DNA from: Candidatus Omnitrophota bacterium
Lineage (GTDB): Bacteria > Omnitrophota > Gorgyraeia > Gygaellales > Profunditerraquicolaceae
Assembly (NCBI GenBank): GCA_043797735.1
Contig: JAZDPH010000057.1
Location: 1 to 59,912, forward strand
DNA: 59,912 bases
Reading direction: 5' to 3'
Shown: positions 30,839-59,912 of the stretch, one piece after another
Numbering within the stretch: position 1 is the stretch's first letter
Layout of the letters: each line of letters begins with the position of its first letter
Translations under genes and position numbers: made by a program
The notes under the pieces: model-generated
Database searches by the model: none
What the model was told of the DNA's origin: nothing
The model's input: the letters and a program-made list of their open reading frames with translations, nothing else

Positions 30839-33800
30839 CTAAAATTCACTGCTTATAATTGGAGGGGGGCGGGCTAAAGTTGGAATCCAAACTTCTTCCG
30901 GCCTTTTAATGATAGGCCGCAACCCTGAAGAACTTTGGGCTATAGTATTATACCCCCGGCGCAGCCTTATCGGCGTTCTTTCTGCCGGCGGAAACAAATT
31001 GCTGTCAATAAGAGAGGTAACTTTCATCATGGCGCCCACCAGCGCGCCTACGGAGTCATTAGCGTTTAGCGTAAAGCGGATAGCGGATAGGCACACTACT
31101 ATGCGCCCTGTGTTATTCGCTAATCGTGTTAGCGAAGAGCTGGAATATAATCCGTCATTGCGAGCCCCAAAGGGGCGAAGCAATCCCTTTCTCCCGATAG
31201 GCGTTGTCAAGAAAGAAAAGGGACTATTTCTATTTTTACTCTCCACCGGCGAGCTGTTTTTAAGGGGCACTTCTTTTCTATCTACATTATTCTTAAAAGG
31301 TTGCTGGGGCCTGGTCCTATTCTGTTCGTTGAATCCTAGACTGGCTGATATAGTCCAATCATGTTCGAACTCAGAAGAACGTTCGGAATATTTTGTAAAA
31401 CAACCTTTTCCAGCATCCCATATAAATGTTCCATCAATACCATCATCTTCTTTTTTATTAAAAATAAAATTAAACCCTCTCCCAACATCCCAGCGATTCC
31501 AATCTACGGCCCTTTCATCTTCAAGTCTTAAAACTTTCTTTGATGCTTGCTGTGTTTCTTGTTTGACTCTTGCTTTAATAATTTCTAAGAATCGTCTAAC
31601 AATATTGTCACTTCTTCTTGCAATTAAAATCTTCCGCTCTTCTTCTTTAGTAAAAAGAATACCTAATTTAGCCTGAACGCTTTGCAAAGCAATCAATCTT
31701 TTTTCTTCATCTTTTTTGTTTATGGCAGGGGTTAAAATCTTTTCAGGACCACTCACTCTGTCTATAATTTTCTGTTGAATATAGTCATCAGGAATTTGTG
31801 CATAATAAGGTAGCACAAAGGGATCAAATAATTTTTGTATTTGACTTCGAATTTCATAAATATGATTTCTTATGCCGCCGATACTACATCCCTTTAATAT
31901 GGCCCAAATATTTATTGATAACCCTTGAGCAAGTTCTGGCATTTTGTATCCTAGCTCAACAGGGTTGTGTTTATAATAATACAAAGTAACTAAACCTAGC
32001 TCCCTGAGAATATCTACAGCTTCTCCATTACAATCAGGCATTTGATCCACAGGAACCACGTTACTTTGTCGGCTAAGATAATTAAATGTCAAAGATAATG
32101 CTTGCTGTTTATCTTTAGGTTTTGGCATTCTTTGAGCTGGGACGCTAAAGCTATAATATAAGCTGAAACGCTCAAGCCATGCAGCATAGTGATCACGAAA
32201 GATAACATTGGTTGACTCACCAACCATAAAGTGTTGCTTTAGAAATCCCATTTCTGATTTTGGGGAATAATACCCGTCTTCACGCAGACCAAGATACTCA
32301 ACTTCAAACCCACCGCCGATGTAAAGAAAATCATCTAATGCGTTTAAGTCCTGAAGTTCCCTCGTAAGTTTAAGCGCCTCTATATTTGCTCCATCTACAG
32401 GATAAATATCCCCAAAAAGCATAGCAGATTCAGAATACACGGGATGAGGACCAATGTTAGCCAAAATGACATTAAAGGGCCCATGAACTGCCAGTTTATC
32501 ACCCATGCCCGCGTCATTAAACCTTCCTTCAACAAAAATGGCTTGGCTTAAATTAAATCCATTTATTTCTCTTTCGGCTTCAAAAGTTTTTCTCAAATCT
32601 GCTTCTTTTTCGACACCAACTGCTTTAAGGGCGCCTAACTTTAAAGCAAATAATGCGGCAATCCCCCCGCCAACTCCATGTTCCAATACTACGGCGCCTT
32701 CAAAAGAATCTTTGGCCTCAACCATTTGGACTAAATAGGGGACTGCATAGCGCATTCCTTTCCTCGTATGAGCAAATTGCTCACTTACTGAAGTAAGAAA
32801 AAGAACATCTTTATGCAAAGCCTCTGGAATAACTTTTCGTAGATTTTCATCAGCGATTGCATGCTTTCCCAAACGAAAAAAACAATTATATTTTTCCCCT
32901 GGACCCTTCCCTTGAATTACAGAATATTTATGTGTTTTAGATTTAATATTCTTAACTTTACCAATTGCATGCTCTTTTATACTATCATTTAAATAAACAC
33001 CATTTCGTTTAACTGCACCATATGCATTCTCAAAATTATATTCTTTAACAAGCATTTTTTCTACGCCAGCCATGGTTTTGAGAGGGGATTCTCTAATATT
33101 ATTTAAAGCCTCTCCCCCTTCATTCCCTAACACCGGCGAGGCGGCGGAGTCCTTCATCAGCGTGGAGCCCTGCGCCGGGGCCGCCGCGGCTATGCTCTCT
33201 GTGTTATCCGCTGATTCTGTTACCGAAGAACTGCCATAACCACTGCTATCTGGTATCCCGTTCTCTAACCAATATAGTGCTACATCAAAAACTTCTGCGA
33301 GTGCCTTTAAATTATCTTGGGATGGAGAAACTATGCCCTGTTCCCAGCGCCAAACAGAGATTTCATTAACACCAATTTTAGCGGCAAGTTGTTCTTGCGT
33401 AAAATCGTTATTTTCTCTAAGCCGCTTTATCCTTTCTTCTAATGTCTCTACCTTAAGGCAGTCCTTTACCGATTCATCTTCGGGCAGAGGAAGATTCCCG
33501 TCAAGACTCTCCATTATTATTTGCTTAATTTGCTCTAAGGGTTTACCTGATTGGCCCTTCTTAATGAGGGCAACAAGTATTGCATCTATATTGCTTTCGG
33601 GGGCTGTTTCCTTTATCAATTTTACAAGATTCTCAAGTTTATTTATATTTAAGGCATTAGGAATTCTGGGCCAATTAAATTCTTCCCCATATAAAATAGA
33701 TAAGGTATCCGGAGGGACGCCGCTTTCTTTAGATACAAAAATAAGGCCTTCTATCCCTGCTTCCTTTAACCAGCTGGAATGCTCTTTAGTCAATCCTTCG

Positions 33801-36800: not shown

Positions 36801-39800
36801 GATATAATTGTATCGTAAGCCTCTTGCAATAAATCGCGGCCAGGCACATTCTTTTCCTGGGTAAGGAGATTTCTCCTAAACTGTACTATATTAACACCTA
36901 TTGCACCCAACATTCCGGCTGTTTGAATAATCTGACTGATATTGTTTTTAGTAAGTAAGACTGTAACGGTAGTCTGGATTTTTGATTTTTTATGGTGACA
37001 CAACCTAACAAATGATTCGATATTTTTGATAACTCTATCCCTATGTTTATTTTGATGAAGACTAACTCTGGCAAAAATACCTCCTTCGGCTAACAATTCA
37101 CAAATTTCCCCCTTAAACTTAAGCCCATTAGTAATCAAGCCAACTTCAAGGCCCTGTTTTAAGAACTCTTCGATTCCTCTCTTGCTTGATGCATAAGCAA
37201 CAAGCGGATCCCCGTTAGTTCCCGTAAGCCTCACGCGCTCTATAGGATCTATCCTGTGCTTTGCATTGTATGCTTTAATCCTATCAGCGATTATTTGCAT
37301 TAGGTCAGGAGATATAGTTAATTGTTTGGGCTTAGAGAAAATATTACCCGAACAAGTAGGACATCTCATATTGCAGATATTGCTTACATCTATTTCTACT
37401 TCCGAAGGCCCCATAGGCTTACCTTTTAAAATGCCTAAGATTCTACCCAGATGCTTCTTAATCAATCTATCTTCAAAATCGAATGTTCCTGATTTGCCTT
37501 CTTTTAAACCAAATAATCTCGCGAGGCGCTTAAGCTCTTTTTGCTGCCAAGCTGAATCGGTTTTATTTTTCTCCCCCACCGCCGAGCTGGAGCCCTGGGC
37601 TGGATTGTCTAAACTAAACCCGCCTATTATCTTTGACCTGCGATTTAAAGCAACAAACTGCCTCTTGCTAAAATCTAATCCAACTCTGTTATCGCGGTAT
37701 ATTTCGCTCTTTATATGCGCAGCCAAAGAGATATGTAATGCCCTTAAGGCTAGCAATATGGCCTCGGCATTTTCTTTGTTTGAAATCTTTTTTGCTTTAA
37801 TCGCTTCTGGAGAAGTTATGGGCTGGATAAGTATTGCTTTTATCTTGTTTCTCCGGATAAAAGAAATATATTTTAAAATCTCATTAATAAAACCTTCGGC
37901 AATTCCCTCTGGTGAAAAAATAATTGAAGGGTTTTGAGGGGCTACGTTCAAATGGGCAAAAGTACATACTATCCTATTAAAAAGAATGAGATAATTACAA
38001 TTATCCGCCCCTTGCGATGTTAATACCTTTTCTTTGCTATTAACATTAATAATCCCGAATTCATTCGTCCTTAAGATTCCGGGGGGGCCACGGGTTACTG
38101 CTTGAGAACTAATAACTCCTGCCGCATGGCTAAGGCGGTACTTTACCGTATCTATCCCCTGCGGAGTTGAATCAACTATAGTCCATGGAATCCCTGCCTG
38201 CTTTAATAATTCCTGCAACGATATCCCCAATGCAGAGGCCAGCCCGGATAACGTATTGAACCTGATCCCCCCCTGGCACCCGTCTTCAATGCTGGTGACA
38301 ACAGAAGGCCCTGATAAATGCGCTAGTCTTGCTAATTCTCTCTTGGAGCATTGCTTTTCTGTATGCAATCCTTCTACAAACTGCCCTAACACCATGCTAT
38401 TCTCTATGGTAAGCGGGATTATGGGATTATTATTCTTTACCGGCGAGCTGGAGCCCTGCGCCGGGGCCGAGGAGGCGGCTTGCCCTAACGGAAAAACCTT
38501 GACAAAAAATCCTAAGATAATAGAATATGGCTGTATGTTAACAGGCAGAGAATTAGATACGTTATCTAACTTCTTCTTAGATGGAGCAAAGATACTGTTC
38601 GGTTCTTTGGTTGTAGGTGTTTTTGTCCCAGGCGCTTCTGGTAAAATCTCCTGGTTGACCTTTGTTGTTGGAAGCGGGATGACCATGGTGTTTCTGGCAA
38701 TAGCGGCGCGCCTGTCTAAATTAGCGAAAGAATAAGGATGAATCTCTTGACTTTTTATATTCTGGCTGGAATTCTTGCCCTCATTATTTTTCTTTGGGCT
38801 ACCAAAGGGAAAAGGTGATCTATTATGGATAGTTGGGCTTTTCTCTATATTATTGCTTTCATTATTATCGCCGTTGACCTCTTTGTTGTCCTTTCCTATA
38901 AAAAGAGATAGCGCTCTTGCGCTTCCTCGTAATAGCCCCATCAGAATCAACAGGCTGAAATAAAAGGATTGTAGACGCTTTACGGAACCATCGATAGGAG
39001 AAGAAGTTACGGAAGAAATACTTCCTCGGATGTATTTGCTTGCCAACTCCTTGTTAGACAACGAGCTAGATACAGCGTCTGGATTTTCTCCAACCACCGC
39101 GCCGACTTCCACCGGCGAGGCGGCGGGACCTTTCAATATTTCTCCTATGCTCTTAACCTTGACTAATGAGACTATGATATCCTGAGGGGAATAGTCTGAA
39201 ACCCAACTTATTATCTTGTCAGTCCCGGCTTCCAACTCTTTAATGGTTTTAACCTTGGCTAATAAGACTGGCAGATAATCAAAAACATACCGATCAGGTT
39301 TACCGAATTTAACCTTGCGGTAGGCGGCCTCGTGGTTAGCATAGGCTTGAATCAAAATTATTATCTCGTTATTCCAAGCTCTCAACTCTTCAGGGGTTAT
39401 AACTTTAGCTAATAAGGCTGGGAGACAACCCTTGAGATACCATTCTGAGAATGAATTATTATCGACATACTTGTTATACCCGTAAAGGTCACTGGATTTA
39501 TTCTTGTAGAGTTGAATCACTCTTATTATCTCATCATTCCAAGCTTCCAACTCTTTAATGGTTTTAACCTTGGCTAATAAGTCTGGGATGGCTTTTTGAT
39601 ACCAATAATCAGAGCTTTCGAATAGACAAGAGAAGACTTGAGTCAAATTTATTATCTTCTGAATCCAGGCGCTTAATTCATCTATGTTTGTAACCTTGGC
39701 TAATAAGTCAGACAGACAATCCTCGACATAATAGGGAACGTTACTAAATGTAGCCTTGTAGGTATTGAGCAGACTCGTCTCTCTGCTACTTAACTCTTTT

Positions 39801-54800: not shown

Positions 54801-57800
54801 ACGACTACCTTAAGCCCCTTCAGAAGGCCGGGTTTTGAATCTTTACTATCCAGCGGCGAACCGGACTGACGTAGTAGATCGCTCAACTGGCCTAAGCTCT
54901 CAATAACCAAGTCAAAAGGCTCGGCCCTAACCGTGCCATCATCCCGGCTTTCTGCCTTGAATAACTCCCTGGCCTTTTCCAGCTTGCTTTCTCTTTCTCT
55001 ATCCGCCGCCGCGAACATCGCCAGCCGCACACCCTTAATGGCTTTTCTCAACCCGACAATTACCCTCGGCGCGTCATCCACTATTAAAACTTCATCCGCT
55101 GAAAACCCATTATCCTCTATTATCCGAGCCATAGCCTCTATTTTGGCGCTTACCCCATTAGTTTTCTTGCCCTCTTCTTCATTAAGACAAAACCTTATCT
55201 CCTCAAAATATCTCTCCAGCTCGAAACGTTTTAATATAGCTCCCTTGCTTTCATCCGAGGCAGAAACTATAAAAAGAGGTACTGCCAAACTTAACTCTTC
55301 AATCGCCTCTATCGCTTGCGGAGTCAATAAAGATGCGGCTGAATCGGAAAGCAAGATTCCTTCTATCCACTTGTTTCTTAACTCCTCATAGGCCTTTATG
55401 TATGCCCCAACGGCCCTGAGCCCTTTTCCGCCCTGCCTTTCTATATGTTTGATTACCTCCGGCAACATTTCTCTGGTAGGCGTACCCAAGATATTCGCAA
55501 GGAATTCATCTATCCACTCTTCAAAACTACCAATCTCAAGCCCAGCCTCCTCCAACATCGTATGGATTATTTCCCTTAACGCAGCCCGACAAACAGGCAC
55601 TGTCTCCGCGATTACCCCCTCCAGATCACATATAACCATCTTAATCCCGCGCAAGGCAATAGAAACCGGCGAGCTGGATTTGTTTCTTAACGCACTACTG
55701 CATAATAAGAGCTTATTATACGCTGATTCTGACAATATAGATAATTTACAGAATGTTCCGTCAGTATATTGTGACCAAGGAATATCGAATTCTAGCGCGT
55801 GCCCGAACCGTTTTTCCATATACTGCGCTGCCTCATCAGTCAAAAAAAGAATTAACTGTTTGCTTGAAACATCGTAGTCTAAAGAGACAAAAGGGGCTTT
55901 ATCTAATTCGATATTAAGCTTATCTAAAAAACAAGACCCTGTAAATCCGGATAAAACATACTTATTATCCGAAAGCGGCATTAGCGGTATCCCAAAAGTG
56001 ATTGTTCCTCCTGTATGGTCCGGGAACTGAAAGACTAATCTGTTGTTTCTATAATTTAAACTCACTTCTAAACTGTAAGGGCCAATTGACGCAACCTCGT
56101 TTACCCACCAGAGGTAAGCGGGAAGTCGATCAAAAAACTCACTGATAACAATATATTTATTAAGGCCTGGCCTTGGTAATTCTATTTTCTCTTTTTCACA
56201 CTCTGACTCAGATATCAGCTTCCATTTACAAGCTCTAGCATCAGATACAATAGAGTAGCGTATATCTTGGAGAAATAATTCCTGACTATGATAACCCAAA
56301 TGTTTTTCAAGAGCTTCTTTTGCTTCATCTGTAAATATTAGAATATACTGCTCTAAAGATTGATTCCAAAATAACCCGACAAACGGCGGATTCAGCACAG
56401 TTACATCATATCTGAATATACAGTTATCACTTTTAAAAGAAATAACATAACCTTTTTGTTTTCTATTGTAGATAAGGGGTATAGACAGATATTTACCGTT
56501 GGTGAAATTAAACCTTAAGTAATCCGAGCCAAGAGACGCTCGCATGCTATATCCTCCTCTGAGCTCTGCAACTTTTGATACATACGGAAGCTGGCTAAAA
56601 ATATTACGGATATAGGTAATAATTTCTTCCCTTGTCTGACGAAGGAGAAAAAAGTCATTTTCTAACCTCAAAACTGATTCATTTTTTAAGAGATGTCTCT
56701 GTTTGAAAAGTAACAGCGTTAACAGATAACTTACGTCCAATGGCAATAGTAGCTTCAAAGCCCATTTTATGAGCATTTCCGAGAGAGTTTCTTTATGAAT
56801 ATTCCCTAAGACGGCTTTGTCAGGAGAATTAAGGCTATATCCGGCATGTGCACAATTGAAGACTTGGCCTTTAATATTTATATACAGCGATAAATTCCTT
56901 GGATTATTATGGTCATCTATATCATCTTCTTTAACCATAGCTTCTCTCCGTTCCAACCGCGTTGCTGCGCCTTGGGCAATGATCTTCCTAATATTAAAAG
57001 CCTGAGGATATTTTGTATATTTTCCCGCGAGGCCATATTTTGCAATTAAATCTTCTGCTACTTGCATACCCCCTACTGGAGGTATACGAATGTTGTATTT
57101 TATAGCAAGCCTTCTGTTCTTTCTTACATATTGTTCTGCAGACGAAACAATTTCTTTGAGATCCTTTCCGCGCCTTCTCATTGCTTCTTCATGTGCCACA
57201 TCAATAGAAAGCCAAATTACTGTGTTAGCAGGGAATAAATCTATCATATTAAGAAGATAGAAGCCATTAGTCACTATATTTACAGTGCCAATATGCTGAC
57301 AGGCAAACCTAAGTAACTCTATAAAGTTAGGATGGGCGGTAGGTTCTCCTCCTTCTAAAAATAAGGCCGGAAAACCGGAGCATTTTTTAACAAAATTTTT
57401 GAAAAGTTCCGGCGGGAAATCTTTATTTGGTTCCTGGTTTATTACGTCTTCTGCCAAGCAAATATTGCAATCTAAAAGACACTTGTGCGTTAATAAAACG
57501 GTTATTAGTTTGGGATCCATGTCAAGCAAGGAACACAGGTAGCTAAAAATGATATGTTCTTTTTGAGGGGAATTTAAAACTTCTTCAAGAGCCAACAGTC
57601 CATTATGCCCTGTAGGTAAATTATTAAGAAAAAGTTGCTTGCACTCATCATTGTTCCCTCTACCGTTCGACGCGCGCGACTTCAACGGCGAGGCGGAAGA
57701 ACGAACAGGCTCAGCTATCGAGCTGCTGCTGCCGGGAATACCTTTATTATCTAAAAAGTATTCTTGGAACAAGTTCGGCCATTCTGTTAAACCAAGCCCC

Positions 57801-59912
57801 TGTAATTTGCTCAAATTACAATCAACCATCCTGTTCATTTTCTTGAACTGCAAAGGTGAGTTGCTTCCGTTCTCAATGTTCCTTACTTGTTGTTTCCTCT
57901 TGCTCAACCAATATAAAGAAATAGTAATTACTCCTATTATACAAGCACCAGCGCTTATAGATGGGAAACTAATTTTTCTTCGCTCATTGGTAATGTCCAT
58001 TTTGTATCCATCTCTGTCGCAAGCGACAATAGGGGACGGTTCTATTTTTTCTTTCCCCGCCGCCGAGCTGGAAGAGGAATTATCCTCTATTATCTGCCTG
58101 GTTTCCCGCACTTGTTCTGGATAAGAATTGCTGACCGCAATAATAACATCGAATTTTTCGCCTTTAAGCTTTACTCTTTTCTCGCTTATTATTCTGTCAA
58201 TGCATTGCCGGAAATCTTTCGGGAGGAATCTTGGCCCGCGCTTTTTCTCTTTCCGCGCCAGGGCTATTGTGGAAGGACAACAGAGGAATTGCCTCATTTC
58301 GGCCAATGTAAGTTTTACAGACACGCTACCTTTCTCGGTTACTGTTACCCGAGAGATAATCTGGGGCCTACCTCTGATAAATGCGTTTATTGCTTTTACA
58401 ACGTAACCACCGTCAACTTCTCCGAAGTAAACCATGTTTCTTATCCTATCGAATGTGCTGTCAGTAAGCACCATTAGGTGCGACCAATGCGCTAAGTCAA
58501 TCCCTATTACCTGCTGGTAAAGTTTACCTAAAGTAAGATGAAACTTAAACTCAAATATGGTATTGTTTGAAACCGCATCAAGCTCCTTCTTGCCATAAAT
58601 TGACTTATTTAACGTTTGCAATTTGCCAAGGCTGATCTTTTCCAGAGTGCTGCCTCTCTTTACGATAATTTCGTAAAGGCCGGATAATTCGCCTGCTAAC
58701 CCCAGAATCTGGCTGCGGCCTGTTTCGCCTTTTGAGAAAGCAGCTGCCATACCTCTAACAGCATTATAAACAGCCCTGTGCACCAGTTTTTGGGATTTCC
58801 CTTCATATGAGAGCAGTCCTTCTATTTTCTCCCGCAGCCTTTCAAAAGAAAAATCCCTATTTTTAAATTTGCTGATTTTTAACAAAGCTTTTTCAATCTC
58901 CTCTAGAATAACGGAGTCAGTCACCGGCGAGCTGGCAGCATAAGTTTTCAAGATAAAAATACAATCTTGACTTTTGCTGGAATGTATAGTATTATTTAAT
59001 TGATAGAAGGAGATAAAAATGAAAAAACGTGAATTTACAGTATTAATTGAACGCGACGAAGATAATATACTTATCGCTACTGTCCCAGCCTTGAAAGGTT
59101 GCCACACCCAAGCAAAAACTATACCTTTATTATTGAAAAGAATAAAAGAAGCCATATCTTTATGCCTGGATGTGGAAGAACCTTCTAATCTTGAGTTTGT
59201 AGGCTTACAAGAAGTTGCTGTATAATGACCCGCGTCACCCCCCTTAAACCTACCCGCGCTATCCGCATTATTGAAAAACTTGGTTTTCAAGCCATCCGTC
59301 AAAAGGGGAGCCATATTTTCTTCCGTCATCCCGATGGGCGTTCTACCGTTATTCCTTTCCATAAAGGCGAGGATTTGGGCCGAGGCATTATCAGGGCCAT
59401 ACTTAATGATATAGAATTGACCTGGGAAGAATTTATTGCCGCGAAATAGAAAAACCTGTTCCCCCTCCTCCACCGGCGAGCTGGAGCCATTAAAAATAGA
59501 ACCGTCCCCATTTTTCGAAGAAAAGGTTATTGATGAAGAAGCGGAAGGATCAATTTCCTGCAGACGCTTTACGGAACTCACTGCGGAAGAATAAGTTACA
59601 TAAGAAATACCCGGGGCGCATTTCTCTTCTAACTCACTGTCAAGCAATGAGCTAGATACAGCGTCTGGATTTTCTGAGGAAGAAGCTGTGCTTTTATTAC
59701 GGTGTAAGAGCGCATCCTCGCGTAAAAGACGATCAAGCTGAATTTTAAGCAGGCATCGAATGGGTAAAGGCATAAGCTTCTTCCTTATGATACAACTGAA
59801 TACCCCTTTGGATAAATCCTCCCTATCTAATAAGTTTTTTAAATTGAACCGATAATTAATGAGCCTAGGGAACAGGAGCCTCAAGAAAGAAAGATTATTG
59901 CTGATAGTAAAA
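30839..59912 (-). CDS. Giant multi-domain protein, 5'-truncated by the window (>9690 aa)
   Basis: No stop codon over 29 kb; frame stays open from the called TTG (59884) to the window edge (FTISNNLSF); many recognisable enzyme modules in frame. Confidence 0.9.
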   Translation of the reverse strand, partial: FTISNNLSFLRLLFPRLINYRFNLKNLLDREDLSKGVFSCIIRKKLMPLPIRCLLKIQLDRLLREDALLHRNKSTASSSENPDAVSSSLLDSELEEKCAPGISYVTYSSAVSSVKRLQEIDPSASSSITFSSKNGDGSIFNGSSSPVEEGEQVFLFRGNKFFPGQFYIIKYGPDNASAQILAFMERNNGRTPIGMTEENMAPLLTDGLKTKFFNNADSAGRFKGGDAGHYTATSCKPTNSRLEGSSTSRHKDMASFILFNNKGIVFAWVWQPFKAGTVAISILSSSRSINTVNSRFFIFISFYQLNNTIHSSKSQDCIFILKTYAASSPVTDSVILEEIEKALLKISKFKNRDFSFERLREKIEGLLSYEGKSQKLVHRAVYNAVRGMAAAFSKGETGRSQILGLAGELSGLYEIIVKRGSTLEKISLGKLQTLNKSIYGKKELDAVSNNTIFEFKFHLTLGKLYQQVIGIDLAHWSHLMVLTDSTFDRIRNMVYFGEVDGGYVVKAINAFIRGRPQIISRVTVTEKGSVSVKLTLAEMRQFLCCPSTIALARKEKKRGPRFLPKDFRQCIDRIISEKRVKLKGEKFDVIIAVSNSYPEQVRETRQIIEDNSSSSSAAGKEKIEPSPIVACDRDGYKMDITNERRKISFPSISAGACIIGVITISLYWLSKRKQQVRNIENGSNSPLQFKKMNRMVDCNLSKLQGLGLTEWPNLFQEYFLDNKGIPGSSSSIAEPVRSSASPLKSRASNGRGNNDECKQLFLNNLPTGHNGLLALEEVLNSPQKEHIIFSYLCSLLDMDPKLITVLLTHKCLLDCNICLAEDVINQEPNKDFPPELFKNFVKKCSGFPALFLEGGEPTAHPNFIELLRFACQHIGTVNIVTNGFYLLNMIDLFPANTVIWLSIDVAHEEAMRRRGKDLKEIVSSAEQYVRKNRRLAIKYNIRIPPVGGMQVAEDLIAKYGLAGKYTKYPQAFNIRKIIAQGAATRLERREAMVKEDDIDDHNNPRNLSLYINIKGQVFNCAHAGYSLNSPDKAVLGNIHKETLSEMLIKWALKLLLPLDVSYLLTLLLFKQRHLLKNESVLRLENDFFLLRQTREEIITYIRNIFSQLPYVSKVAELRGGYSMRASLGSDYLRFNFTNGKYLSIPLIYNRKQKGYVISFKSDNCIFRYDVTVLNPPFVGLFWNQSLEQYILIFTDEAKEALEKHLGYHSQELFLQDIRYSIVSDARACKWKLISESECEKEKIELPRPGLNKYIVISEFFDRLPAYLWWVNEVASIGPYSLEVSLNYRNNRLVFQFPDHTGGTITFGIPLMPLSDNKYVLSGFTGSCFLDKLNIELDKAPFVSLDYDVSSKQLILFLTDEAAQYMEKRFGHALEFDIPWSQYTDGTFCKLSILSESAYNKLLLCSSALRNKSSSPVSIALRGIKMVICDLEGVIAETVPVCRAALREIIHTMLEEAGLEIGSFEEWIDEFLANILGTPTREMLPEVIKHIERQGGKGLRAVGAYIKAYEELRNKWIEGILLSDSAASLLTPQAIEAIEELSLAVPLFIVSASDESKGAILKRFELERYFEEIRFCLNEEEGKKTNGVSAKIEAMARIIEDNGFSADEVLIVDDAPRVIVGLRKAIKGVRLAMFAAADRERESKLEKARELFKAESRDDGTVRAEPFDLVIESLGQLSDLLRQSGSPLDSKDSKPGLLKGLKVVVIGGGSGPERVVEGLMKEGARITNITTVFDNGETTGRLRKALDMPAVGDLRNRLVTLLSKAKYGTILQAIFNHRFPKAKETEKDNEQLMAELEKIIQIQGAGLPLDIKEFLQGSIEYFIAQKIRDGPNFNLFGAKVGNLILASEYFQAGNDLSEAVRQVCDVLGVSKYAQVIPVTLANLDIACETQKRQIIVGEHEISHHLNPKDRISRVFFVKRKGEAYEKVEPPEAVKEALEAIREADVIIIGPGSIFTSYIPVLSVKGVAKAIRQSRALKILIPNISWWNFRESFAETPDTFTAGDIVETVLAYLKQSDDEPALPAQYLDYTLVNDAVAPKWYHVLLETGVIEYMGIRVVRGDFEDKRQKSHHHPHKISKAIREIVASTRSGNSISSSPAEGHRAASSSISKEDDMALQRLLTIIITHYYRKENKRQKKDIRKKARQIIEETVKKHNITISALSAACKKITTPFSNKKAYQKEFTSLPDRLTIIGSKFFYSLPEEIKKKNYIKATMKQTMPFAGKQVKVPEGYVYLKFYPKYDRPGIRREITGIIRQFGGAVEHIKAYWISGRYCIVVFFRLDNSKKDAAFKRLGKIADVRSQEHEEARQAGLLIKRRLVVKTLVEEENLLNTILNALWELDKRINITEDYDGIECIDKIYTWCLNLEVPKCLRGQGRNKPLDEYIKEELEQIELIDDNAIEITVGRIKSAGSPAATESACAAGAAEATRVSSLPVALVEESSSAISSGIKQNKKDIMVFDSGIGGLNVFNAILSQLPLQTIGYYNMQVAPIGSKPVEQIQRITLTQVKSCLNMHDPETIVFACRTISALCLQMTKEYLEKEGKNREVIGFIKPVTKAVIEFGFKRVGIVATPRTIESNAFSDALTGLDERIKIFSRAFPDEVIMVIEGDNLESPDAAKKLKELIGRNLGYFNSRNIEALILGCSHYGYITSLIKEALGPEVKIIDAAKTQVELIIQKFTKNNLNENNLLPIERSSSSAVEDRNGPISLFYAPLEILTALFCPPWLAGNRPFPAGFILIWSKASGLLFLRSRKALSTAPLAVKVPLMACSSSSVVSSSPAGAASSSVKQTAGKGANKKEKIIENLIKRVQAIMAMCEDKVIKKLADLIHPLYYENPISKAHQKIVVKTIIEEEAFRTSFNKAIIAGLRNKEPNFYNALYIIYQLFSNANQQEICGQIAGQLKSHIEDYFNKQIEDNLYTNQGQKIIAFCPGEAINSFKKVIKEIIRHFSWEDFYEDWQDILGIEEAINKGLSELVSAYFKISGFQDESSLEEEKYNKAQMKLVHRNGVKGIAGGAREYNRDLTDILAELYFNFPGVGLLRLYLGFLQEENKWHILELMKEIYWHNPKNEQGAFVLTYQERLDWKNRFVRDSLVSLFSNDENEGLLYRDRALWALVRLALFDQEGAWIDRLILNNCENPEEIEAIERVTEEQDKYFKVRYESNYEGTGLDGAMKQAVYLYTNLLRLRRAIRESKEKEIKRWAEKAEATRSKVKKRIISEEKLAAIKQAIESAVENLPEGLSDAGEEIKILVGKLENQQLIKINAPSVRVTINKVRLQLGHYLSGLVALIPRQSGRGGCLAVKILIDMAKPTNMLFIVFNTGRVFFYDSEAQEWSSGIAPNDKRTVQIKDLLSDDIVQGFIGRVMRNYFGNTDNRQRIVESHKLRKILNRQKSEEINSTSFDGRFIKILLPKSNKPKGQEEITRIDEKKGHGKRYVAFTKKEDYLLFLFLPAELIIYANSGVLFSRNMEDCSVQDMRDIREEFLRPFFLGLDTKSASPISSLSSPLLGAGACSLLNLNIKVMNLFSLNPLATREHAQFDPAVMISWAERLLKKLNSDPRVLRVIEKLAGDPEFIELARSATTRHLILPKSSSAVREEKTETFPIGTSEKNPDAVSSSLSKGTLESKDPQSISSVTSSSVEGSVKRLQFGKNKSSSSLNSLKKHSSISINPASQVKSASSAGGKIDSSSTIAKDASRGIEFDPNDVDYNAKVLVILRKLGKIGKLDIIALSKSKLSGTGIISRLIDGLEISLREEEQKTAGLLDQGMSIQEMASQIYKETIKHTAKLIQKHSRDSKLSLKEIELALNAPGADVRGDLDIISDLELHIANINEALERAICAIPGEQKKNKRQKRSKKKVISEIQRIAKKEGSDKLNVTYMQKKHGSLYHAGCRYFGTWEKAVTAAGYNYDEIRQTESQSKKKVISEIQRIAKKEGSDKLNVTYMQEKHSSLYNNGCRYFGTWEKAVTAAGYNYDEIKQVGSWSKKKVISEIKRIAEEEGSDKLNVTYMQEKHSSLYYAGRYHFGTWEKAVTAAGYDYKEIKQGKFLPAPEIEPLEPANVAILPRAGDKINYIPIGLCAVVQVAGLKENLRVKVWFPHHGEEILWWGTAKKFSTVIPKAKKASGLALSANKAAPAQGSNSLKQKNGEISPQAGSAVEEESMNSPLSACSSLNVEQVLDLYDENLPPEIYRNHAKRVAEIAVIIAEEMGLEKASVEKLRVAALLHDIGYNGLNWKMVSEIKKLKKQHEIETRPKGATIFQQVIECIEQEINKKLSTGGIKSEDLTNLVIIESTGKVSLREGIKDNLFILFDHAGRGAGIIKQLESTMGFLLTEDIYTIVKDHTYPERMPSDADEEIRLLTGILKAADVIETLNNNDKFRNHSSKRWHRIDLFAAAEYLGVLAETKKDITKSRVREDVYPVVEKLIYSGHPGLLKVILEARGAQSLFPSEIRIIREMNRSATSPVEAARDYFGAEFRLSEANARLAMTKVTASAAPAQGASSPVGGKNREANSSVNLEEMAREYQLDWPTLGPEDKEVLFAAQEILATILKFGVWSKITDTRRKQINALVKDNLTNIGQLRKAFLESGLFRPWELFNSFSLQIISKLLSGVDVSDEARKLAFNKIEDIFKSDKSGDIRFYSAQAFGLTGPYGVTHLLRLTAPFEPKDVRSAAKQALTNKGVQAFAMQSLLESLIEKGDMNTRKYAAVILDCLAPCMQPKDLLYLYGEAGEGIVNSLAKDIFAKVGFPTFSDFIHSVFFTVNLSAEDVLRLQDRLDKLFEFRRSLTEEVFNELLRRCGFASLSNWVVMADMPDIETFKFLANAELGKRKWAPQLAIVEALKERNPQLIQDVLILILASAVSIDAKMIRSFLKAVCNDPVGGFQIIVFLIVALRLKLIEFYEGDFVQEAISELLNDNIGDVYYLVAMLIHSIPYSLDRSDSYSKRIRDASAELDDIYRGQNNLLRYIRLKLHREPSSNDKDFIETILLAIEKKRGRLIKRFIKPEALSEVFYSLGEDFVESLHQIYEEVKALAGDPLLIPLEELDSFFAKTQKGSVEERKVVGHLLKLRIWTRRRYPDVQSMRQDLSSVSLSQEVIKCIEGGDYVSALKKIAQIRRKIKKMVLTYVQKPKITKELAIKRHIANDRWGFLDVGYYGQYWERKFSSFNESCLLELHEDELLDGLYRGQFKEAIERIRKVKAVTEKQEKPLPDKAVGDIAFVIEVITLVLDKIELQGLAARRLTEINTMLKTQAFTLGQLRDVVSGLEDEFYRYFSFFNYSFSNMPKLVAQSIGRNNLAGAYRDSPSVSQLDDAGFYQYVQEKLIGDLRAESMVIDLLQRYAKSAREIIEHCLLAFDDGVILKRKNNELLYADYSQAGGEISPVILGSKAKGLLDYTKLGLSVPPWACFTTDVFRQPQLWGKDSSRHPEFVAMVVDAVLQIEVAAKKAFPFMLEKLDKPLQEKIMRARKKAGVDENAVLLLSVRGGSFISMPGQLKTFTNAALNDAIVEKMLQFYGDYRFVYDTYRLFLRDYAEAFAGIGCRVFIDIIDTMKSEVAKAQGLDNEKITIDEFDAQQYRRLIRLFKAEIEDKGINLAEALKDPLQALLRCIESVFESWNSPSVAAYRKNFGISEAWGTSCTLQQMVFGNLNPDSGTAVVFTRDPDTSARMPHGDYKPRAQGSDIVGGLTTHSLLISRSQSADPLIQVLEDVHPVRFKQIELICNKLDVFEGEPQDVEITVESLEGRATTYLLQSRAAPLIKKKKDADLLAGDEEPFVRGVPVCGNGVVGRILIAIGVPLEEFARRVEVLRKQMDTQGEGELGIIAIFDYIPPEESLKLSIPAVDGILSAAVTSNHASLTAIREGKTYIGAIEKLTFDKTTGQCRLKGRRMQEGIDGDIVSIDGHRPSQSTTSGNIYLKRLNVKVIFPENKYTSSSAVKGIRYLKELWRVIRHPTFISLAVTMPIAYFSSIRYFTHHSPDSFSGIAGFLKQNPDAVSSSLSSRNLGKKYIPSIFYAASSPVDGSVKRLQFEPPPIFINFILSAASSSSSALRQSGASPVVHDVILTSHEVIQILRTRIESANGNNGLKDGTSRISLLLQYFQLLAMLYGRGGNAKVTECVHTIERFVYTGRMSEKEAAKRLGKIDNRLWFRPAASSKLNVSNPAAGGKNGNVPPIHTNTASPLTQSETSGGLSAKRSTLSANKATSAQGSSSLNQKSDKASLRLAPLSPKESRRARWKRRKYSKKPRKDRRPSSKRKRARRYRGDVFYDPGDPDSRLFDPVLSGRRGSIFSSSAVEITNYNVTSKDAQYTIRRTEEGDSSSSSIKSKRMSEKNPLLSLSKLRPNDIELLRKARRRNGPFDSSAKEVNPENPDAVSSSLSNTELGSKDIRSSSSVTSSSVEGSVASPVELSLERIIELLPSAYNLKELARLRLNIKMTVSVDSFKKGLFNSLNTKRLLTEGLLCYIDFIIEYQNDDGIYRKGEIRLLYNLQQEQTIIISHLYPNLPNGKGLGKALVWLLLNRQRWVGNLLTLDAAIRDGQKMAESMPDMNTRKIGKKYYMGADECQDYELIIPKKTEEERIAIKEFLARYTVFNVVNELPNIWESVRKALQNKLGDALLAVVWFGSTREGAGHDIELLVIVKDENRNDLRQKTGPFGLTVMTDGQLRHPSSVGEFGLSFINSIFDPLNPPVCIYGSGYIWQLELPFSSPSDSNRSISPTVQLQAKELSSRETSLLNTYKATFSNVPYYVEDCLSDLLAKVTNIDELSAWIQKIINLTQVFSCLFESSDYWYQKAIPDLLAKVKTIKELEAWNDEIIRVIQLYKNKSSDLYGYNKYVDNNSFSEWYLKGCLPALLAKVITPEELRAWNNEIIILIQAYANHEAAYRKVKFGKPDRYVFDYLPVLLAKVKTIKELEAGTDKIISWVSDYSPQDIIVSLVKVKSIGEILKGPAASPVEVGAVVGENPDAVSSSLSNKELASKYIRGSISSVTSSPIDGSVKRLQSFYFSLLILMGLLRGSARALSLFIGKDNKEVNGDNNESNNIEKSPTIHNRSPFPFGSPKKNNEGKNSSQNIKSQEIHPYSFANLDRRAAIARNTMVIPLPTTKVNQEILPEAPGTKTPTTKEPNSIFAPSKKKLDNVSNSLPVNIQPYSIILGFFVKVFPLGQAASSAPAQGSSSPVKNNNPIIPLTIENSMVLGQFVEGLHTEKQCSKRELARLAHLSGPSVVTSIEDGCQGGIRFNTLSGLASALGISLQELLKQAGIPWTIVDSTPQGIDTVKYRLSHAAGVISSQAVTRGPPGILRTNEFGIINVNSKEKVLTSQGADNCNYLILFNRIVCTFAHLNVAPQNPSIIFSPEGIAEGFINEILKYISFIRRNKIKAILIQPITSPEAIKAKKISNKENAEAILLALRALHISLAAHIKSEIYRDNRVGLDFSKRQFVALNRRSKIIGGFSLDNPAQGSSSAVGEKNKTDSAWQQKELKRLARLFGLKEGKSGTFDFEDRLIKKHLGRILGILKGKPMGPSEVEIDVSNICNMRCPTCSGNIFSKPKQLTISPDLMQIIADRIKAYNAKHRIDPIERVRLTGTNGDPLVAYASSKRGIEEFLKQGLEVGLITNGLKFKGEICELLAEGGIFARVSLHQNKHRDRVIKNIESFVRLCHHKKSKIQTTVTVLLTKNNISQIIQTAGMLGAIGVNIVQFRRNLLTQEKNVPGRDLLQEAYDTIISLQEKNTLAPLEITTSFFNPVLDKPEYFSPKCFYAYFIVAVGCEGKLYPCTHCIPGSPYFGDFNTQADLEEMLQRGVKEVLPGLNPQVSCRGHWCAPVSFRTNRFIDYLVTKTKENPQYPGWLEANFRDTSENTDFASRSLLDLPDKITASSAMGGEKTETSLICIIENKHGKASSPSLSGRIGFSALKAQGAAKAAQGSSSAAQKHSENITITDAFGLHLRPYIDLYKLAGRFPETTIKIIHLGKEVIVKSGNSFLELLEMAIKNGDTIAVETTGSDNGILMGEIRRIARGGSLDKFPGESDEVMDESHSSSAVGEEITSSSVSLRGAPQARRSNLKDGGIASLLPWSNAFAVARNDKLYSSSAIEGLVSSTVGMKNRQARKNSQEMRAWARKHQGERVSGSQTELAIQFGVSHVTIGIILEKGTAPFSGSVAQGSSPAQKRTASSLAGVKNRNVPILLISSSSAVGKNKPNDIDYKAKVLIVITSFNKVGTGRKLSIRGIMASNKLSGTGIIGRLVAITEVKLTPEEKAIVELLDRGLSIDEVALYRVNIREDEEPAIEGIGEGSIEDLCALFSDETDFNAGEPDNIALERAGPSKKDIAVVGSLINTIESKLLQAIAAMPVDLIAGFINEVAPPAPKKEPAVEKMPEADGRLKKPGALEDLDSCISRYKGLHAESEELAEKLREQKSDGIIILDETTLGCLIEQHWGSISIIADAVKRDARTIGKKIRQSPDLDQRAKTLRRKARRRARREEKYALEELIRDHNGNTAKMRDSLGITRQAIHARLRRYVRFKELAEALSGAVYAMLRPSILRLINEAAPPALKDKYNSLEDLFKALEEGKQIIITDGTEPIVAEWAIGEEKREVDLTALNNIYKHPDYQGREGALYLAQAVELAIRAGRIKVSGVVIYENFSVGPQLKHLSREAKERLRMKSQDLPWRTFFKGKKLLGANPGDYLGNQGQVRFARELCLSNTYDLVTAFGDEFGWNKLRATIEKLDKAEGLTKEHSSWLKEAGIEGLIFVSKESGVPPDTLSILYGEEFNWPRIPNALNINKLENLVKLIKETAPESNIDAILVALIKKGQSGKPLEQIKQIIMESLDGNLPLPEDESVKDCLKVETLEERIKRLRENNDFTQEQLAAKIGVNEISVWRWEQGIVSPSQDNLKALAEVFDVALYWLENGIPDSSGYGSSSVTESADNTESIAAAAPAQGSTLMKDSAASPVLGNEGGEALNNIRESPLKTMAGVEKMLVKEYNFENAYGAVKRNGVYLNDSIKEHAIGKVKNIKSKTHKYSVIQGKGPGEKYNCFFRLGKHAIADENLRKVIPEALHKDVLFLTSVSEQFAHTRKGMRYAVPYLVQMVEAKDSFEGAVVLEHGVGGGIAALFALKLGALKAVGVEKEADLRKTFEAEREINGFNLSQAIFVEGRFNDAGMGDKLAVHGPFNVILANIGPHPVYSESAMLFGDIYPVDGANIEALKLTRELQDLNALDDFLYIGGGFEVEYLGLREDGYYSPKSEMGFLKQHFMVGESTNVIFRDHYAAWLERFSLYYSFSVPAQRMPKPKDKQQALSLTFNYLSRQSNVVPVDQMPDCNGEAVDILRELGLVTLYYYKHNPVELGYKMPELAQGLSINIWAILKGCSIGGIRNHIYEIRSQIQKLFDPFVLPYYAQIPDDYIQQKIIDRVSGPEKILTPAINKKDEEKRLIALQSVQAKLGILFTKEEERKILIARRSDNIVRRFLEIIKARVKQETQQASKKVLRLEDERAVDWNRWDVGRGFNFIFNKKEDDGIDGTFIWDAGKGCFTKYSERSSEFEHDWTISASLGFNEQNRTRPQQPFKNNVDRKEVPLKNSSPVESKNRNSPFSFLTTPIGRKGLLRPFGARNDGLYSSSSLTRLANNTGRIVVCLSAIRFTLNANDSVGALVGAMMKVTSLIDSNLFPPAERTPIRLRRGYNTIAQSSSGLRPIIKRPEEVWIPTLARPPPIISSEF
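32140..32720 (-). other. Giant-ORF module: class I SAM methyltransferase (PrmA-like)
   Basis: VVLEHGVGGGIAALFALKLGALKAVGVE; FNVILANI. Confidence 0.75.
33260..33445 (-). other. Giant-ORF module: XRE-family HTH
   Basis: RIKRLRENNDFTQEQLAAKIGVNEISVWRWEQG. Confidence 0.9.
34430..34540 (-). other. Giant-ORF module: Fis-type HTH
   Basis: LIRDHNGNTAKMRDSLGITRQAIHARLRRY. Confidence 0.65.
35730..35831. repeat. Full REP-like palindrome inside the giant ORF, in frame
   Basis: gtcattgcgagcga...gaagcaatc...gagattgcttcg...ctcgcaatgac; partial copies at 31155-31185 and 46482-46539. Confidence 0.9.
35935..36180 (-). other. Giant-ORF module: HPr phosphocarrier domain
   Basis: ITDAFGLHLRP (His15 motif) and GNSFLELL (Ser46 region)...GDTIAVETTGSD. 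Confidence 0.8.
36400..37420 (-). other. Giant-ORF module: radical SAM plus SPASM/twitch
   Basis: CNMRCPTC, GDPL, LITNG and C...G.LYPC motifs. Confidence 0.88.
37620..38390 (-). other. Giant-ORF module: XRE HTH followed by a CheD-like domain
   Basis: SKRELARLAHLS...TLSGLASALGISLQEL; LTSQGADNC...FAHL. Confidence 0.55.
38499..38526 (+). promoter_or_regulatory. Putative sigma70 promoter of the embedded antisense operon
   Basis: TTGACA-N16-TAGAAT; ATG 8 nt downstream suggests a leaderless mRNA. Confidence 0.6.
38535..38735 (+). CDS. Small 2-TM membrane protein nested antisense in the giant ORF
   Basis: MLTGRELDTLSNFFLDGAKILFGSLVVG...WLTFVVGSGMTMVFLAIAARLSKLAKE; two hydrophobic helices; upstream promoter. 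Confidence 0.65.
   Translation: MLTGRELDTLSNFFLDGAKILFGSLVVGVFVPGASGKISWLTFVVGSGMTMVFLAIAARLSKLAKE
38738..38818 (+). CDS. 26-aa single-TM peptide nested antisense
   Basis: MNLLTFYILAGILALIIFLWATKGKR; starts 2 nt after the previous stop. Confidence 0.55.
   Translation: MNLLTFYILAGILALIIFLWATKGKR
38825..38911 (+). CDS. 28-aa single-TM peptide nested antisense
   Basis: MDSWAFLYIIAFIIIAVDLFVVLSYKKR; AAGGTG RBS-like motif upstream. Confidence 0.55.
   Translation: MDSWAFLYIIAFIIIAVDLFVVLSYKKR
38973..39080. repeat. TIR-bounded in-frame element, copy 1 (108 bp)
   Basis: AGACGCT...AGCGTCT ends; encodes NPDAVSSSLS...SVKRLQ. Confidence 0.9.
39160..39730 (-). repeat. Four degenerate helical protein repeats (L.LLAKV.T..EL.AW...II)
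   Basis: DNA repeat aaccttggctaataag near 39251, 39566 and 39692, plus a variant near 39401. Confidence 0.75.
39860..40180 (-). other. Giant-ORF module: minimal nucleotidyltransferase-like domain
   Basis: LLAVVWFGSTREGAGHDIELLVIV. Confidence 0.7.
40761..40857. repeat. TIR-bounded element, copy 2 (left end truncated at a linker repeat)
   Basis: acggaaccctcgac...gagctagatacagcatct directly abuts ACCGGCGAGGCG at 40749. Confidence 0.85.
41886..41990. repeat. TIR-bounded element, copy 3 (105 bp)
   Basis: AGACGCT...AGCGTCT. Confidence 0.9.
42175..46410 (-). other. Giant-ORF module: HEAT-like region plus pyruvate phosphate dikinase-like ATP-grasp and phospho-His domains
   Basis: LGSKAKGL..LGLSVPP, LLSVRGG..SMPG, QQMVFGN, PQDVEIT, LLQSR and SNHASLTA motifs. 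Confidence 0.85.
46570..47420 (-). other. Giant-ORF module: HD-domain phosphohydrolase
   Basis: NHAKRVA...AALLHDIG...DHAGRG...ILKAADVIE. Confidence 0.85.
47815..48375 (-). repeat. Three tandem 192-bp (64-aa) repeats resembling the homing-endonuclease-associated repeat
   Basis: ccttcttttttgac at 47977, 48169 and 48361; SKKKVISEI...YFGTWEKAVTAAGY. Confidence 0.92.
48993..49097. repeat. TIR-bounded element, copy 4 (105 bp)
   Basis: AGACGCT...AGCGTCT. Confidence 0.9.
51719..51789. repeat. Long hairpin CCCCGCTGGAAA...TTTCCAGCGGGG inside the giant ORF
   Basis: 12-bp outer stem with inner ctgttc/gaacag stem. Confidence 0.75.
51890..52560 (-). other. Giant-ORF module: glutamate racemase (MurI-like)
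   Basis: VFDSGIGGL, FACRTIS, IGFIKP and LILGCSHY (both catalytic Cys present). Confidence 0.88.
53665..54820 (-). other. Giant-ORF module: YvcK/GlmR (CofD superfamily)
   Basis: VVVIGGGSG, TVFDNG..TGRLR...GDLRNRL, GNLIL and ADVIIIGPGSIFTS motifs. Confidence 0.9.
54870..55650 (-). other. Giant-ORF module: HAD-superfamily hydrolase
   Basis: VICDLEGVIAET, FIVSAS and LIVDDA motifs. Confidence 0.8.
56760..57520 (-). other. Giant-ORF module: radical SAM domain
   Basis: CLLDCNIC, GGEPTAHP, IVTNG and LSID motifs. Confidence 0.88.
58967..58995 (+). promoter_or_regulatory. sigma70 promoter of nested hicBA
   Basis: TTGACT-N17-TATTAT; AAGGAG RBS at 59007-59012, 6 nt before the ATG. Confidence 0.75.
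59019..59225 (+). CDS. hicB: HicB-family antitoxin (short form) nested antisense in the giant ORF
   Basis: FTVLIERDED...ATVPALKGCHTQAKT...IKEAISLCL; RBS and promoter present. Confidence 0.9.
   Translation: MKKREFTVLIERDEDNILIATVPALKGCHTQAKTIPLLLKRIKEAISLCLDVEEPSNLEFVGLQEVAV
59225..59449 (+). CDS. hicA: HicA-family mRNA interferase toxin nested antisense in the giant ORF
   Basis: LGFQAIRQKGSHIFFRHPDGRSTVIPFH...LGRGIIRAIL; TAATG coupling with hicB. Confidence 0.92.
   Translation: MTRVTPLKPTRAIRIIEKLGFQAIRQKGSHIFFRHPDGRSTVIPFHKGEDLGRGIIRAILNDIELTWEEFIAAK
59562..59666. repeat. TIR-bounded element, copy 5 (105 bp, most diverged)
   Basis: CAGACGCT...AGCGTCTG. Confidence 0.85.

Follow-up and report, generated by a model that had tools for sequence, protein, structure and literature searches.

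INTRODUCTION

Viral polyproteins hold several complete proteins in one open reading frame (ORF), parted by short protease cleavage sites, and integrons build cassette arrays with the IntI integrase and attC hairpin sites. Here we analyze a cellular gene that can be set beside both: a giant ORF of 9690 codons in a 59,912-nucleotide (nt) stretch of DNA, hereafter the window (contig JAZDPH010000057.1, positions 1 to 59,912, of the Candidatus Omnitrophota assembly GCA_043797735.1). In this ORF a short mark, read S-S-(P/A)-V, is placed directly ahead of most modules.

Giant genes of Omnitrophota have been described before. The main text of Nielsen & Lui 2026 (10.64898/2026.06.07.730766) defines a 'multi-enzyme metabolic cluster' class and stresses that giant genes are nearly all unique in sequence, and that of West-Roberts et al. 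(10.1101/2023.11.21.568195) raises, as a suggestion only, that C39 or S8 domains might cut giant proteins. The words 'linker' and 'polyprotein' are absent from both main texts, and 'motif', 'cleav' and 'junction' also from that of 2026. The main text of Seymour et al. 2023 (PMC10066038) likewise uses none of 'cleav', 'linker', 'polyprotein' and 'fusion'. A literature search on Omnitrophota together with polyproteins returned nothing, and among the matches listed for SSSPV none dealt with bacteria carrying giant genes.

From comparisons within the window, within its host genome and among related genomes, we propose, with a probability of roughly one half, that the mark is a peptide with a function at module boundaries, most probably as a site of polyprotein processing, and that it doubles as a seam for the in-frame shuffling of modules.

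RESULTS

A recurrent mark ahead of most modules of the giant ORF

The host assembly is a metagenome-assembled genome (MAG) of an Omnitrophota bacterium (1.10 Mb, 83 contigs, 83.6% complete). The gene in question is a single uninterrupted frame.

30839-59911, minus strand: giant ORF, 9690 codons, stop at 30839-30841, no internal stop, 5' end open at the end of the window

The giant frame had the top coding score in 442 of 482 sliding windows, with the exceptions on linker repeats. At its module boundaries the original prediction had listed 24 copies of a GC-rich repeat, and at each of these positions, to within 2 nt, the coding strand matches TCGSCGGTG in frame, with no mismatch in 15 cases, one in 7 and two in 2. 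The copies are given below in the direction of reading; the A, C and D1 elements named there are DNA repeats described further on.

59471-59479, minus strand: exact core TCGCCGGTG, read SSSPV
58922-58930, minus strand: exact core, read ASSPV
58058-58066, minus strand: one-mismatch mark (SSSSSAAG), followed by a C element
57683-57691, minus strand: one-mismatch mark (SASPL)
55664-55672, minus strand: one-mismatch mark (SSSPV, with GTT), 9 amino acids (aa) ahead of the HAD domain
51824-51832, minus strand: exact mark (SSSSAV), past the racemase module
49148-49156, minus strand: exact mark (SSSAV), followed by C and D1 elements
48887-48895, minus strand: one-mismatch mark (SASSAGG)
47471-47479, minus strand: exact mark (GSAV), followed by GGAGGAGGAG, 5 nt and the ATG of the HD module
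46550-46558, minus strand: exact mark (TSPV)
46433-46441, minus strand: exact mark within the full composite AAPAQGASSPVGGKNR
42155-42163, minus strand: exact mark (SSSAV), past the PPDK-like module
41792-41800, minus strand: one-mismatch mark (ASPV, with GTA)
41420-41428, minus strand: degenerate mark with two mismatches (ASPL)
41084-41092, minus strand: exact mark (SSSAV)
40748-40756, minus strand: one-mismatch mark (ASPV, with GTA), at the end of a D1 copy
39110-39118, minus strand: exact mark (AASPV), ahead of a D1 copy
38438-38446, minus strand: one-mismatch mark (SSSPV, with GTA), with an A element
37577-37585, minus strand: exact mark (SSSAV), ahead of the second radical SAM module
36341-36349, minus strand: degenerate mark with two mismatches (SSAMGG), with a C element
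35858-35866, minus strand: exact mark (SSSAV), past the HPr module
35402-35410, minus strand: exact mark (SSSSAV)
33131-33139, minus strand: exact mark (AASPV), with an A element upstream
31244-31252, minus strand: exact mark (NSSPV), followed by a C element

Exact TCGSCGGTG occurs within the ORF 15 times in the giant frame, once in another frame and never in antisense; elsewhere in the genome (1.06 Mb, both strands summed) there are 19 copies. Its plus-strand counterpart CACCGSCGAG is found 14 times in the window, always on the plus strand and always within the ORF, against an expectation of 0.16. A genome scan, which the original prediction had called for as a check of specificity, bore out the association with giant ORFs: 15 of 20 CACCGSCGAG matches are translated as S-(P/A)-V within giant ORFs, 14 of them in the window and one on contig C77, and the other five fall in unrelated frames. 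At the protein level, [SA]S[PA]V is 26 times as dense in the ORF, with 2.06 copies per 1000 aa, as in the remaining proteome, with 0.078.

The codon bias claimed for the repeat (TCG, CCG/GCG, GTG) likewise held. At 20 [SA]S[PA]V sites, TCG is used in 17 (9.8% of Ser codons elsewhere in the ORF) and GTG in 14 (16% elsewhere), with CCG in 10 of 11 and GCG in 8 of 9.

Modules start within a few residues of the mark, both in the window and in relatives. The HAD, HPr and CofD domains begin 9, 5 and 14 aa past a mark, respectively, with the profile match running from position 1 or 2. Two further measures were less telling: signature loops of N-termini lay within 30 aa downstream of a mark in 5 of 146 cases, versus 1% at random positions, which is too weak for use, and hydrophobic residues are only modestly depleted around marks.

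Conservation of the mark as a peptide in related giant genes

We searched 40 relatives, found giant ORFs in several, and compared parts of eight giant ORFs from seven genomes. Copies of x-S-S-P-(V/L/I) stand at module boundaries in two other genera of the same family, with 43 in the giant of genome G024 and 59 and 14 in two giants of G012. SSPV alone occurs 28 times in the G024 giant (0.19 expected) in 25 distinct DNA versions, and the information at third codon positions of the mark is 0.36 bit there, versus 1.70 at positions 1 and 2. In the larger set of G012 (contig C1), the 59 copies of SSP[VLI] comprise 34 distinct 9-mers and draw on both Ser codon families at both Ser positions. SSP is followed by V, L or I in 43 of 52 instances in G024 and in 59 of 69 in G012, and the flanks of the mark are unconstrained. 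Since the codons of the mark vary in relatives, with both Ser families in use, while the peptide is kept, it is the peptide that is conserved, and a peptide is what the family maintains at the start of each module. The original prediction had offered a functional peptide, such as a cleavage site, as an alternative to a recombination scar, and the many DNA versions of the mark in G024 and G012 now favor that alternative.

Other lineages carry other recurrent peptides as marks: RAPP in G022, GSVDNGG (DNGG) in G011 and DNG(S/N) in G025. The module CofD is preceded by SSPV in G024, by RAPP in G012 and by GSPL in the window, and MurI by SSSAI in the window and DNGN in G025. In a separate observation on G011 (contig C1, 220001-340000), copies of the boundary-like GSVDNGG agree in their nucleotides as well (GTG GAC AAC GGC; 1.24 bits at third positions), like the mark of the window genome and unlike those of G024 and G012.

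RAPP is encoded 11 times in the giant ORF of G022 (contig C5; 0.18 expected), 5 and 4 times in those of G012 (contigs C5 and C1) and 5 times in that of G011 (contig C1), where 0.1-0.3 would be expected. Its Arg is drawn from both codon families, and by inspection of the flanks it often stands directly ahead of a module N-terminus. This enrichment is surprising because bacterial proteomes otherwise exclude RAPP, as stated in PMC12992588. RAPP is a ribosome-arrest motif (PMC10951233, PMC12992588), and its recurrence at boundary-like positions in sister-lineage giants keeps alive a ribosome-level reading. The mark would then act as translational punctuation, slowing or arresting the ribosome between modules as a checkpoint for folding or membrane insertion, or for stop-and-continue release, and would not be a protease site. 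Consistent with this, the mark favors TCG, the rarest Ser codon in giant ORFs (7-10%), and the core in the window is often trailed by GGAGG-like runs. However, the window ORF itself contains no RAPP (0.07 expected), the literature examined holds no description of S-S-P-V as an arrest motif, and the codons of the mark are not uniformly rare, with AGC making up ~22-24% of Ser codons and CCG 24-35% of Pro codons. We regard translational punctuation as quite unlikely.

Within the host's own genus, comparison gave little: genome G001 shares no giant-gene module, has in common only stand-alone CofD-, MurI- and PPDK-like genes, and shows no match to the C39-bearing head described below. A 282-aa module sought in genome contigs and the CofD module sought in metagenome contigs both returned zero matches.

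The mark as a proposed seam of module shuffling

Two congeners from a sister genus of the host allowed their giants to be aligned, G024 with 18,962 aa and G084 with 13,940 aa. They have eight blocks in common (71-86% identity), re-ordered and with insertions and deletions (indels). Of the 16 block ends in G024, 13 are no more than 30 residues away from an SSP[VLIAM] mark; random placement gave a mean of 2.34, and none of 20,000 simulations reached 13. At these junctions homology reaches the mark and switches directly after it, in several cases exactly at S-S-P-V. One indel adds or removes a module of ~400 aa precisely from one SSPV mark to the next, and the mark that survives it has chimeric codons, part from the left copy and part from the right. 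Rearrangement is also visible between the window and the sister genus, as HAD and CofD are adjacent in the window, while their homologues in G024 (53% and 45% identity) lie 3,600 residues apart.

The original prediction had interpreted the repeat as a recombination or insertion scar, as in an integron inside one gene, and had proposed locus alignment for module gain and loss. That alignment, run in the sister genus, placed most of the breakpoints at the mark. The notion of an in-frame cassette array is thus upheld, while that of an integron-like site is not: the core lacks a conserved hairpin and is used in one frame only. The original prediction had also noted the lack of a recombinase in the window. 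None was found among 20 flanking ORFs scanned, and the genome's two tyrosine-recombinase (PF00589) matches are on other contigs, C15 and C40; PF00589 was also matched in 14 of 14 control genomes.

Apparent DNA-level constraint and other points against a processing peptide

Several observations weigh against reading the mark as a processing peptide and shuffling seam, and we gather them here. Most concern the DNA. In the window, the information at the core's third codon positions (1.34 bits) comes close to that at the first two (1.64 bits), with 0.22 bits in the flanks, in agreement with the nucleotide-level uniformity that the original prediction had noted for this genome. The Pro/Ala switch within the mark is a single C/G change, and SSAV, which occurs 8 times in the window ORF, is absent from the G024 and G012 giants. 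Synonymous conservation and the Pro/Ala switch in the window seem to fit a constraint on the DNA better than one on the peptide. In all three giant genes compared from relatives, too, TCG is overused at the second Ser (22 of 59 versus 7.3%, 14 of 43 versus 7.9%, and 6 of 14 versus 9%), CCG is overused in two of these three, and the TCG/CCG excess comes without similarity of the flanks. Among 151 genomes of the order, 68 contain the exact 12-mer AGCTCGCCGGTR, with 184 copies in all versus 19 for its reversed control, a recurrence in excess of what peptide selection alone explains.

The remaining points concern recombination and the protease. One G024/G084 breakpoint lies away from any mark, and the shuffling is seen in the sister genus, not in the host genome. 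The only protease domain found is the C39 domain on another contig of the host, C7, whose surroundings are as follows.

C7:21919-26343, plus strand: giant-gene head, a 1475-codon ORF running off the contig end (3' open), with a membrane segment and a C39 peptidase domain (PF03412, 38.3 bits)

This head is 57-67% identical to the heads of giants of 8,880-68,606 aa in G011, G022, G024 and G084, and it is probably the head of the host's giant gene. As the head is similar across lineages with different marks, C39 does not track the mark. C39 was considered as the cognate protease and rejected: it shows no co-variation with the mark, and it matches a solved double-glycine protease only weakly (6mpz, E 0.01). 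Peptidase_S8 had zero matches in the 83.6%-complete host genome.

The DNA-level signal lends itself to a different account, in which the mark is a dedicated 12-nt core for enzyme-driven insertion and excision of in-frame cassettes and the peptide is incidental. In the host genome the core, unlike its flanks, is conserved at synonymous sites, Pro and Ala alternate by one base, TCG-CCG is in excess family-wide, and the G024/G084 crossovers fall inside the mark. Matches to AGCTCGCCGGTR are, moreover, often grouped on one strand of one contig, a pattern repeated in many genomes. The same account has difficulty with G024 and G012, which keep the peptide through diverse codons including AGY/TCN switches at Ser, and with the other lineages, which keep other peptides (as in RAPP, whose Arg comes from either codon family). 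Use of the motif is confined to one frame and one strand, and the 20 flanking ORFs scanned offer no recombinase. Folding of 99 nt around 18 cores gave z-scores from -1.37 to +1.77 with no shared structure, and no conserved hairpin at the core; a scan of 30000-59912 with Rfam gave zero families at E <= 0.1. We consider such a dedicated DNA site very unlikely, and an integron-like dedicated system is the least supported of the readings.

The DNA-level signal may come from conversion among marks, from templated birth of junctions or from selection on codons. A survey with aragorn found 33 tRNAs and zero tRNA-Ser in the 83.6%-complete assembly, a count that permits no inference on the supply for TCG or CCG.

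DNA repeats in the boundary zones

The core is often set within longer DNA repeats, among them the A and C elements. These and the other repeats of the boundary zones are listed here.

35690-35880, minus strand: REP-like element of ~190 nt, read through in frame (SLRGAPQARRSNL...AVARND)
31137-31165: second, partial REP-like copy
35432-35448, minus strand: C element, 17-mer AAAATAGAAACGTCCCC, read KNRNVP (longer reading GGKNRNVP)
36315-36331: further C copy
41450-41466: further C copy
49122-49138: further C copy
58032-58048: further C copy
59493-59509: further C copy, inverted
46433-46465, minus strand: A element, GC-rich, read AAPAQGS, joined to the core (repeat-family search, family D10)
33152-33184: further A copy
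38438-38470: further A copy
41327-41359: further A copy
47513-47545: further A copy
41878-41997, minus strand: D1 repeat, ~125 nt (ENPDAVSSSL...GSVKRLQ), found by repeat search
38968-39087: further D1 copy
40744-40863: further D1 copy
48985-49104: further D1 copy
59554-59673: further D1 copy, the repeat occurring five times in total

The REP-like element, with an inverted repeat at 35728-35753 and 35807-35832, has 51 copies of at least 35 nt outside the ORF in the host genome (blastn), 17 of which contain a stop in the equivalent frame. Seven matches fall in the ordinary gene region of the window, six in spacers between ORFs (14-78, 2494-2576, 16375-16437, 19159-19213, 26918-27034 and 29781-29828) and the seventh, 20888-20932, at a gene boundary. 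Its core at ~35790-35832 is covered by very many contigs of a groundwater metagenome, so the element may be common to many organisms of the sample.

Outside the ORF, the C 17-mer (up to 3 mismatches) is found at ~8 sites that crude ORF calls place between genes, several of them directly 3' of genes; a perfect copy lies within a 118-aa ORF on contig C14 that may be spurious. Copies of AAAATAGAAACGTCCCC are near the 3' ends of genes at C46:10780-10830, C9:1558-1574, C56:12004-12020 and C80:15462-15613, and the one on C46 forms one hairpin arm followed by a T run. The sequence is likely a terminator family of the host genome. D1 has no full copy outside the ORF in the host genome. Its copies differ equally at all three codon positions, mostly non-synonymously, and D1 therefore behaves as DNA that is kept free of stops.

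Such boundary zones, with their REP-like, terminator-like and D1 repeats, evolve in a non-coding-like manner and are yet stop-free, and the giant frame is not the top coding frame in them. They are what would be expected if the marks were passive linkers, that is, remnants of welded-in intergenic DNA with Ser-rich spacers, whose function is limited to holding the frame open. Other fused enzymes of the host genome, likewise, use loose Ser-rich joints (SSSSV, TASSAL). Against this stands the precision of the mark: a flexible spacer needs no exact motif of four to five residues with an invariant Pro and an aliphatic last residue, and the motif is kept across genera through synonymous change, at least 100-fold above expectation, between flanks that are free to vary. 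Passive linkers are, in our judgment, an unlikely explanation of the mark.

Modules of the giant ORF and their setting

The Pfam families of the ORF are CofD, HAD, HD, two radical SAM, PPDK_N, HPr, a Cro/C1 helix-turn-helix (HTH; HTH_3), a Fis HTH, three HNH_repeat and a racemase-like family, and none dominates; 9 of 20 modules scanned one by one had no Pfam match at E <= 0.01.

55700-57682, minus strand: radical SAM module (Pfam PF04055, 38.9 bits)
54863-55669, minus strand: HAD hydrolase module, covering profile positions 1-190 of 191; domain begins 9 aa past the mark
53639-54850, minus strand: CofD/YvcK-like module (PF01933, 191.6 bits)
51842-52588, minus strand: glutamate-racemase-like module (PF01177, 30.5 bits, slightly below the cut-off of 31)
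46472-48862, minus strand: HD-domain module that also contains three HNH_repeat units in tandem (47809-48384; Pfam and repeat search)
42170-45367, minus strand: PPDK_N (PEP-utilising enzyme) module (Pfam)
36206-37579, minus strand: second radical SAM module (Pfam)
35873-36193, minus strand: HPr module of 107 aa (PF00381, 43.1 bits); domain begins 5 aa past the mark
33233-35404, minus strand: module with Fis-type and Cro/C1-type HTH domains (Pfam)

The HAD module is 53% identical to a module of the G024 giant, the CofD module 45% identical to its G024 counterpart, with SSSP ending both, and the racemase-like module 33% identical to a module of the G025 giant. The host genome has, in addition, CofD-like and MurI-like genes that stand alone. 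Internal paralogues are few (5 pairs). The three HNH_repeat units are 192-nt copies with 85-88% DNA identity, and the array looks like a recent tandem triplication.

As to what lies between the marks, whole enzymes, short fragments and a REP-like element were confirmed as the original prediction had described them. The reverse-oriented genes that it also reported were not: none of the nine plus-strand ORFs of at least 150 aa has a Pfam match, and no antisense coding signal extends beyond the linker repeats. Separately, the last ~100 codons of the giant ORF (30842-31130, past the REP fragment) are not protein-like, and the opposite strand scores higher there.

On the 3' side of the ORF are a PilZ gene, a sugar ABC transporter, a GH2-like hydrolase, a ROK kinase and a LacI regulator. 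The MnmG encoded in the window has its best matches at 77, 68 and 65% identity, all in MAGs titled Candidatus Omnitrophota. Elsewhere in the window, a ribonucleotide reductase large subunit (11610-15137, minus strand) contains an intein (Intein_splicing, LAGLIDADG_3) and a TSCPD domain. Among sequencing runs, one groundwater metagenome (share 0.05) and no RNA run were listed as containing the sequence. The contigs of this metagenome over 31000-50900 are fragments of 151-272 nt that show 0-1 differences and lack joints, and are uninformative on structural variants.

Enzyme fusions elsewhere in the host genome

Three further fused ORFs lie on other contigs, one of them a piece of a giant gene.

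C77:1-6363, minus strand: giant-gene piece, 2121-codon ORF open at both ends, with GNAT, HEAT, cytidylate kinase and uridine-kinase/PRK domains
C54:11545-14670, minus strand: mid-sized fused ORF with Ser-rich joints
C71:3155-5488, minus strand: mid-sized fused ORF with Ser-rich joints

The piece on C77 bears two ASSPV/ASSPA marks and a near-identical stretch of ~20 residues that is repeated past membrane-like segments. The two mid-sized ORFs, whose joints are the SSSSV and TASSAL mentioned above, have a common C-terminal domain starting SSSSLQA...IDFR, and one holds triosephosphate isomerase inside 1042 aa. Enzyme fusion in the host genome is not restricted to the giant gene.

DISCUSSION

We propose a plausible mechanism by which the mark might serve both the protein and the gene. 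First, the peptide would act in the protein or on the ribosome; most likely it is a cut site, with Ser-Ser-Pro-aliphatic as P4-P1. The pattern small-small-Pro-aliphatic resembles classic serine-endopeptidase substrates. Its place directly ahead of native-like N-termini makes proteolytic processing our preferred function, as far as it can be read from sequence, and cutting at the mark would give each enzyme a near-native N-terminus. Lineage-specific marks would be the expected outcome of co-evolution with a protease. Second, short-homology recombination at the mark, followed by selection for intact in-frame modules, could move modules about with no need for an integrase; because the mark is the only sequence common to all boundaries, such recombination there would make it the shuffling seam. 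In the host, the uniform codons (TCG-SCG-GTG) and the stop-free repeats of intergenic type suggest that genes were welded in together with spacers, or that linkers are evolving in concert.

A more ambitious version of this proposal would treat the giants of the family as self-contained in-frame cassette systems, in which the mark is at once recombination seam and decoding or processing signal, read by a protease or by the ribosome, and in which the TCG-CCG preference keeps the seam recombinogenic or slow. We hold it only tentatively and think it rather doubtful as a whole.

If the mark is a processing site, as we prefer, giant Omnitrophota proteins would be polyproteins and not single chains of tens of thousands of residues, and the mark predicts new N-termini directly after S-S-P-(V/L/I). 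The module indels between congeners show how giant genes change so fast, and they amount to a bacterial route to multi-enzyme genes without close parallel in the literature examined.

Among known systems, REP/MITE-like repeats are similar in that the REP-like, C and D1 elements are short DNA repeats, the first two dispersed in intergenic DNA; they differ in that the window copies are in coding frame and stop-free, and D1 is found in this ORF only. Arrest peptides with RAPP (ApdA/ApdP, SecM-like; PMC10951233 and PMC12992588) share with the giants of the relatives the RAPP enriched at boundary-like positions, whereas the known ones are small regulatory ORFs, not internal marks, and the window ORF has no RAPP. 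Integron arrays, too, consist of unrelated units parted by a recurrent short sequence, and gain, lose and re-order them. In the window, in contrast, the units are fused in one frame without stops of their own, the mark is translated and conserved as a peptide, and neither hairpin nor adjacent integrase accompanies it.

The closest relatives are the published giants of the phylum itself. As described in the main texts of 10.1101/2023.11.21.568195 and 10.64898/2026.06.07.730766, the multi-enzyme or Archaeovorin giants are ORFs of ~10,000 or more codons and, like the window ORF, join many unrelated Pfam families (HAD, HD, radical SAM, methyltransferase-like). That giant multi-enzyme ORFs are reported in Omnitrophota had been taken as established in the original prediction, and rightly: the window ORF falls in the published 'multi-enzyme' class, its 9690 codons with an open 5' end standing against a class size of at least 10,000 aa in the main text of Nielsen & Lui (10.64898/2026.06.07.730766). 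The published class has an N-terminal membrane anchor and a C39 peptidase domain; in the host, a C39 domain heads a giant-gene piece on C7, a contig separate from that of the window ORF. A carbohydrate import system beside the gene is a common trait, represented here by the sugar ABC transporter, GH2 and ROK.

In organization, the likeness to viral polyproteins is that complete proteins stand in one ORF with a short motif that varies by lineage and is conserved as a peptide. The difference is that the window holds a cellular gene whose metabolic enzyme modules are shuffled between close relatives. Set beside these systems, the boundary peptide, its lineage variants and the codon-precise indels of modules appear to be new.

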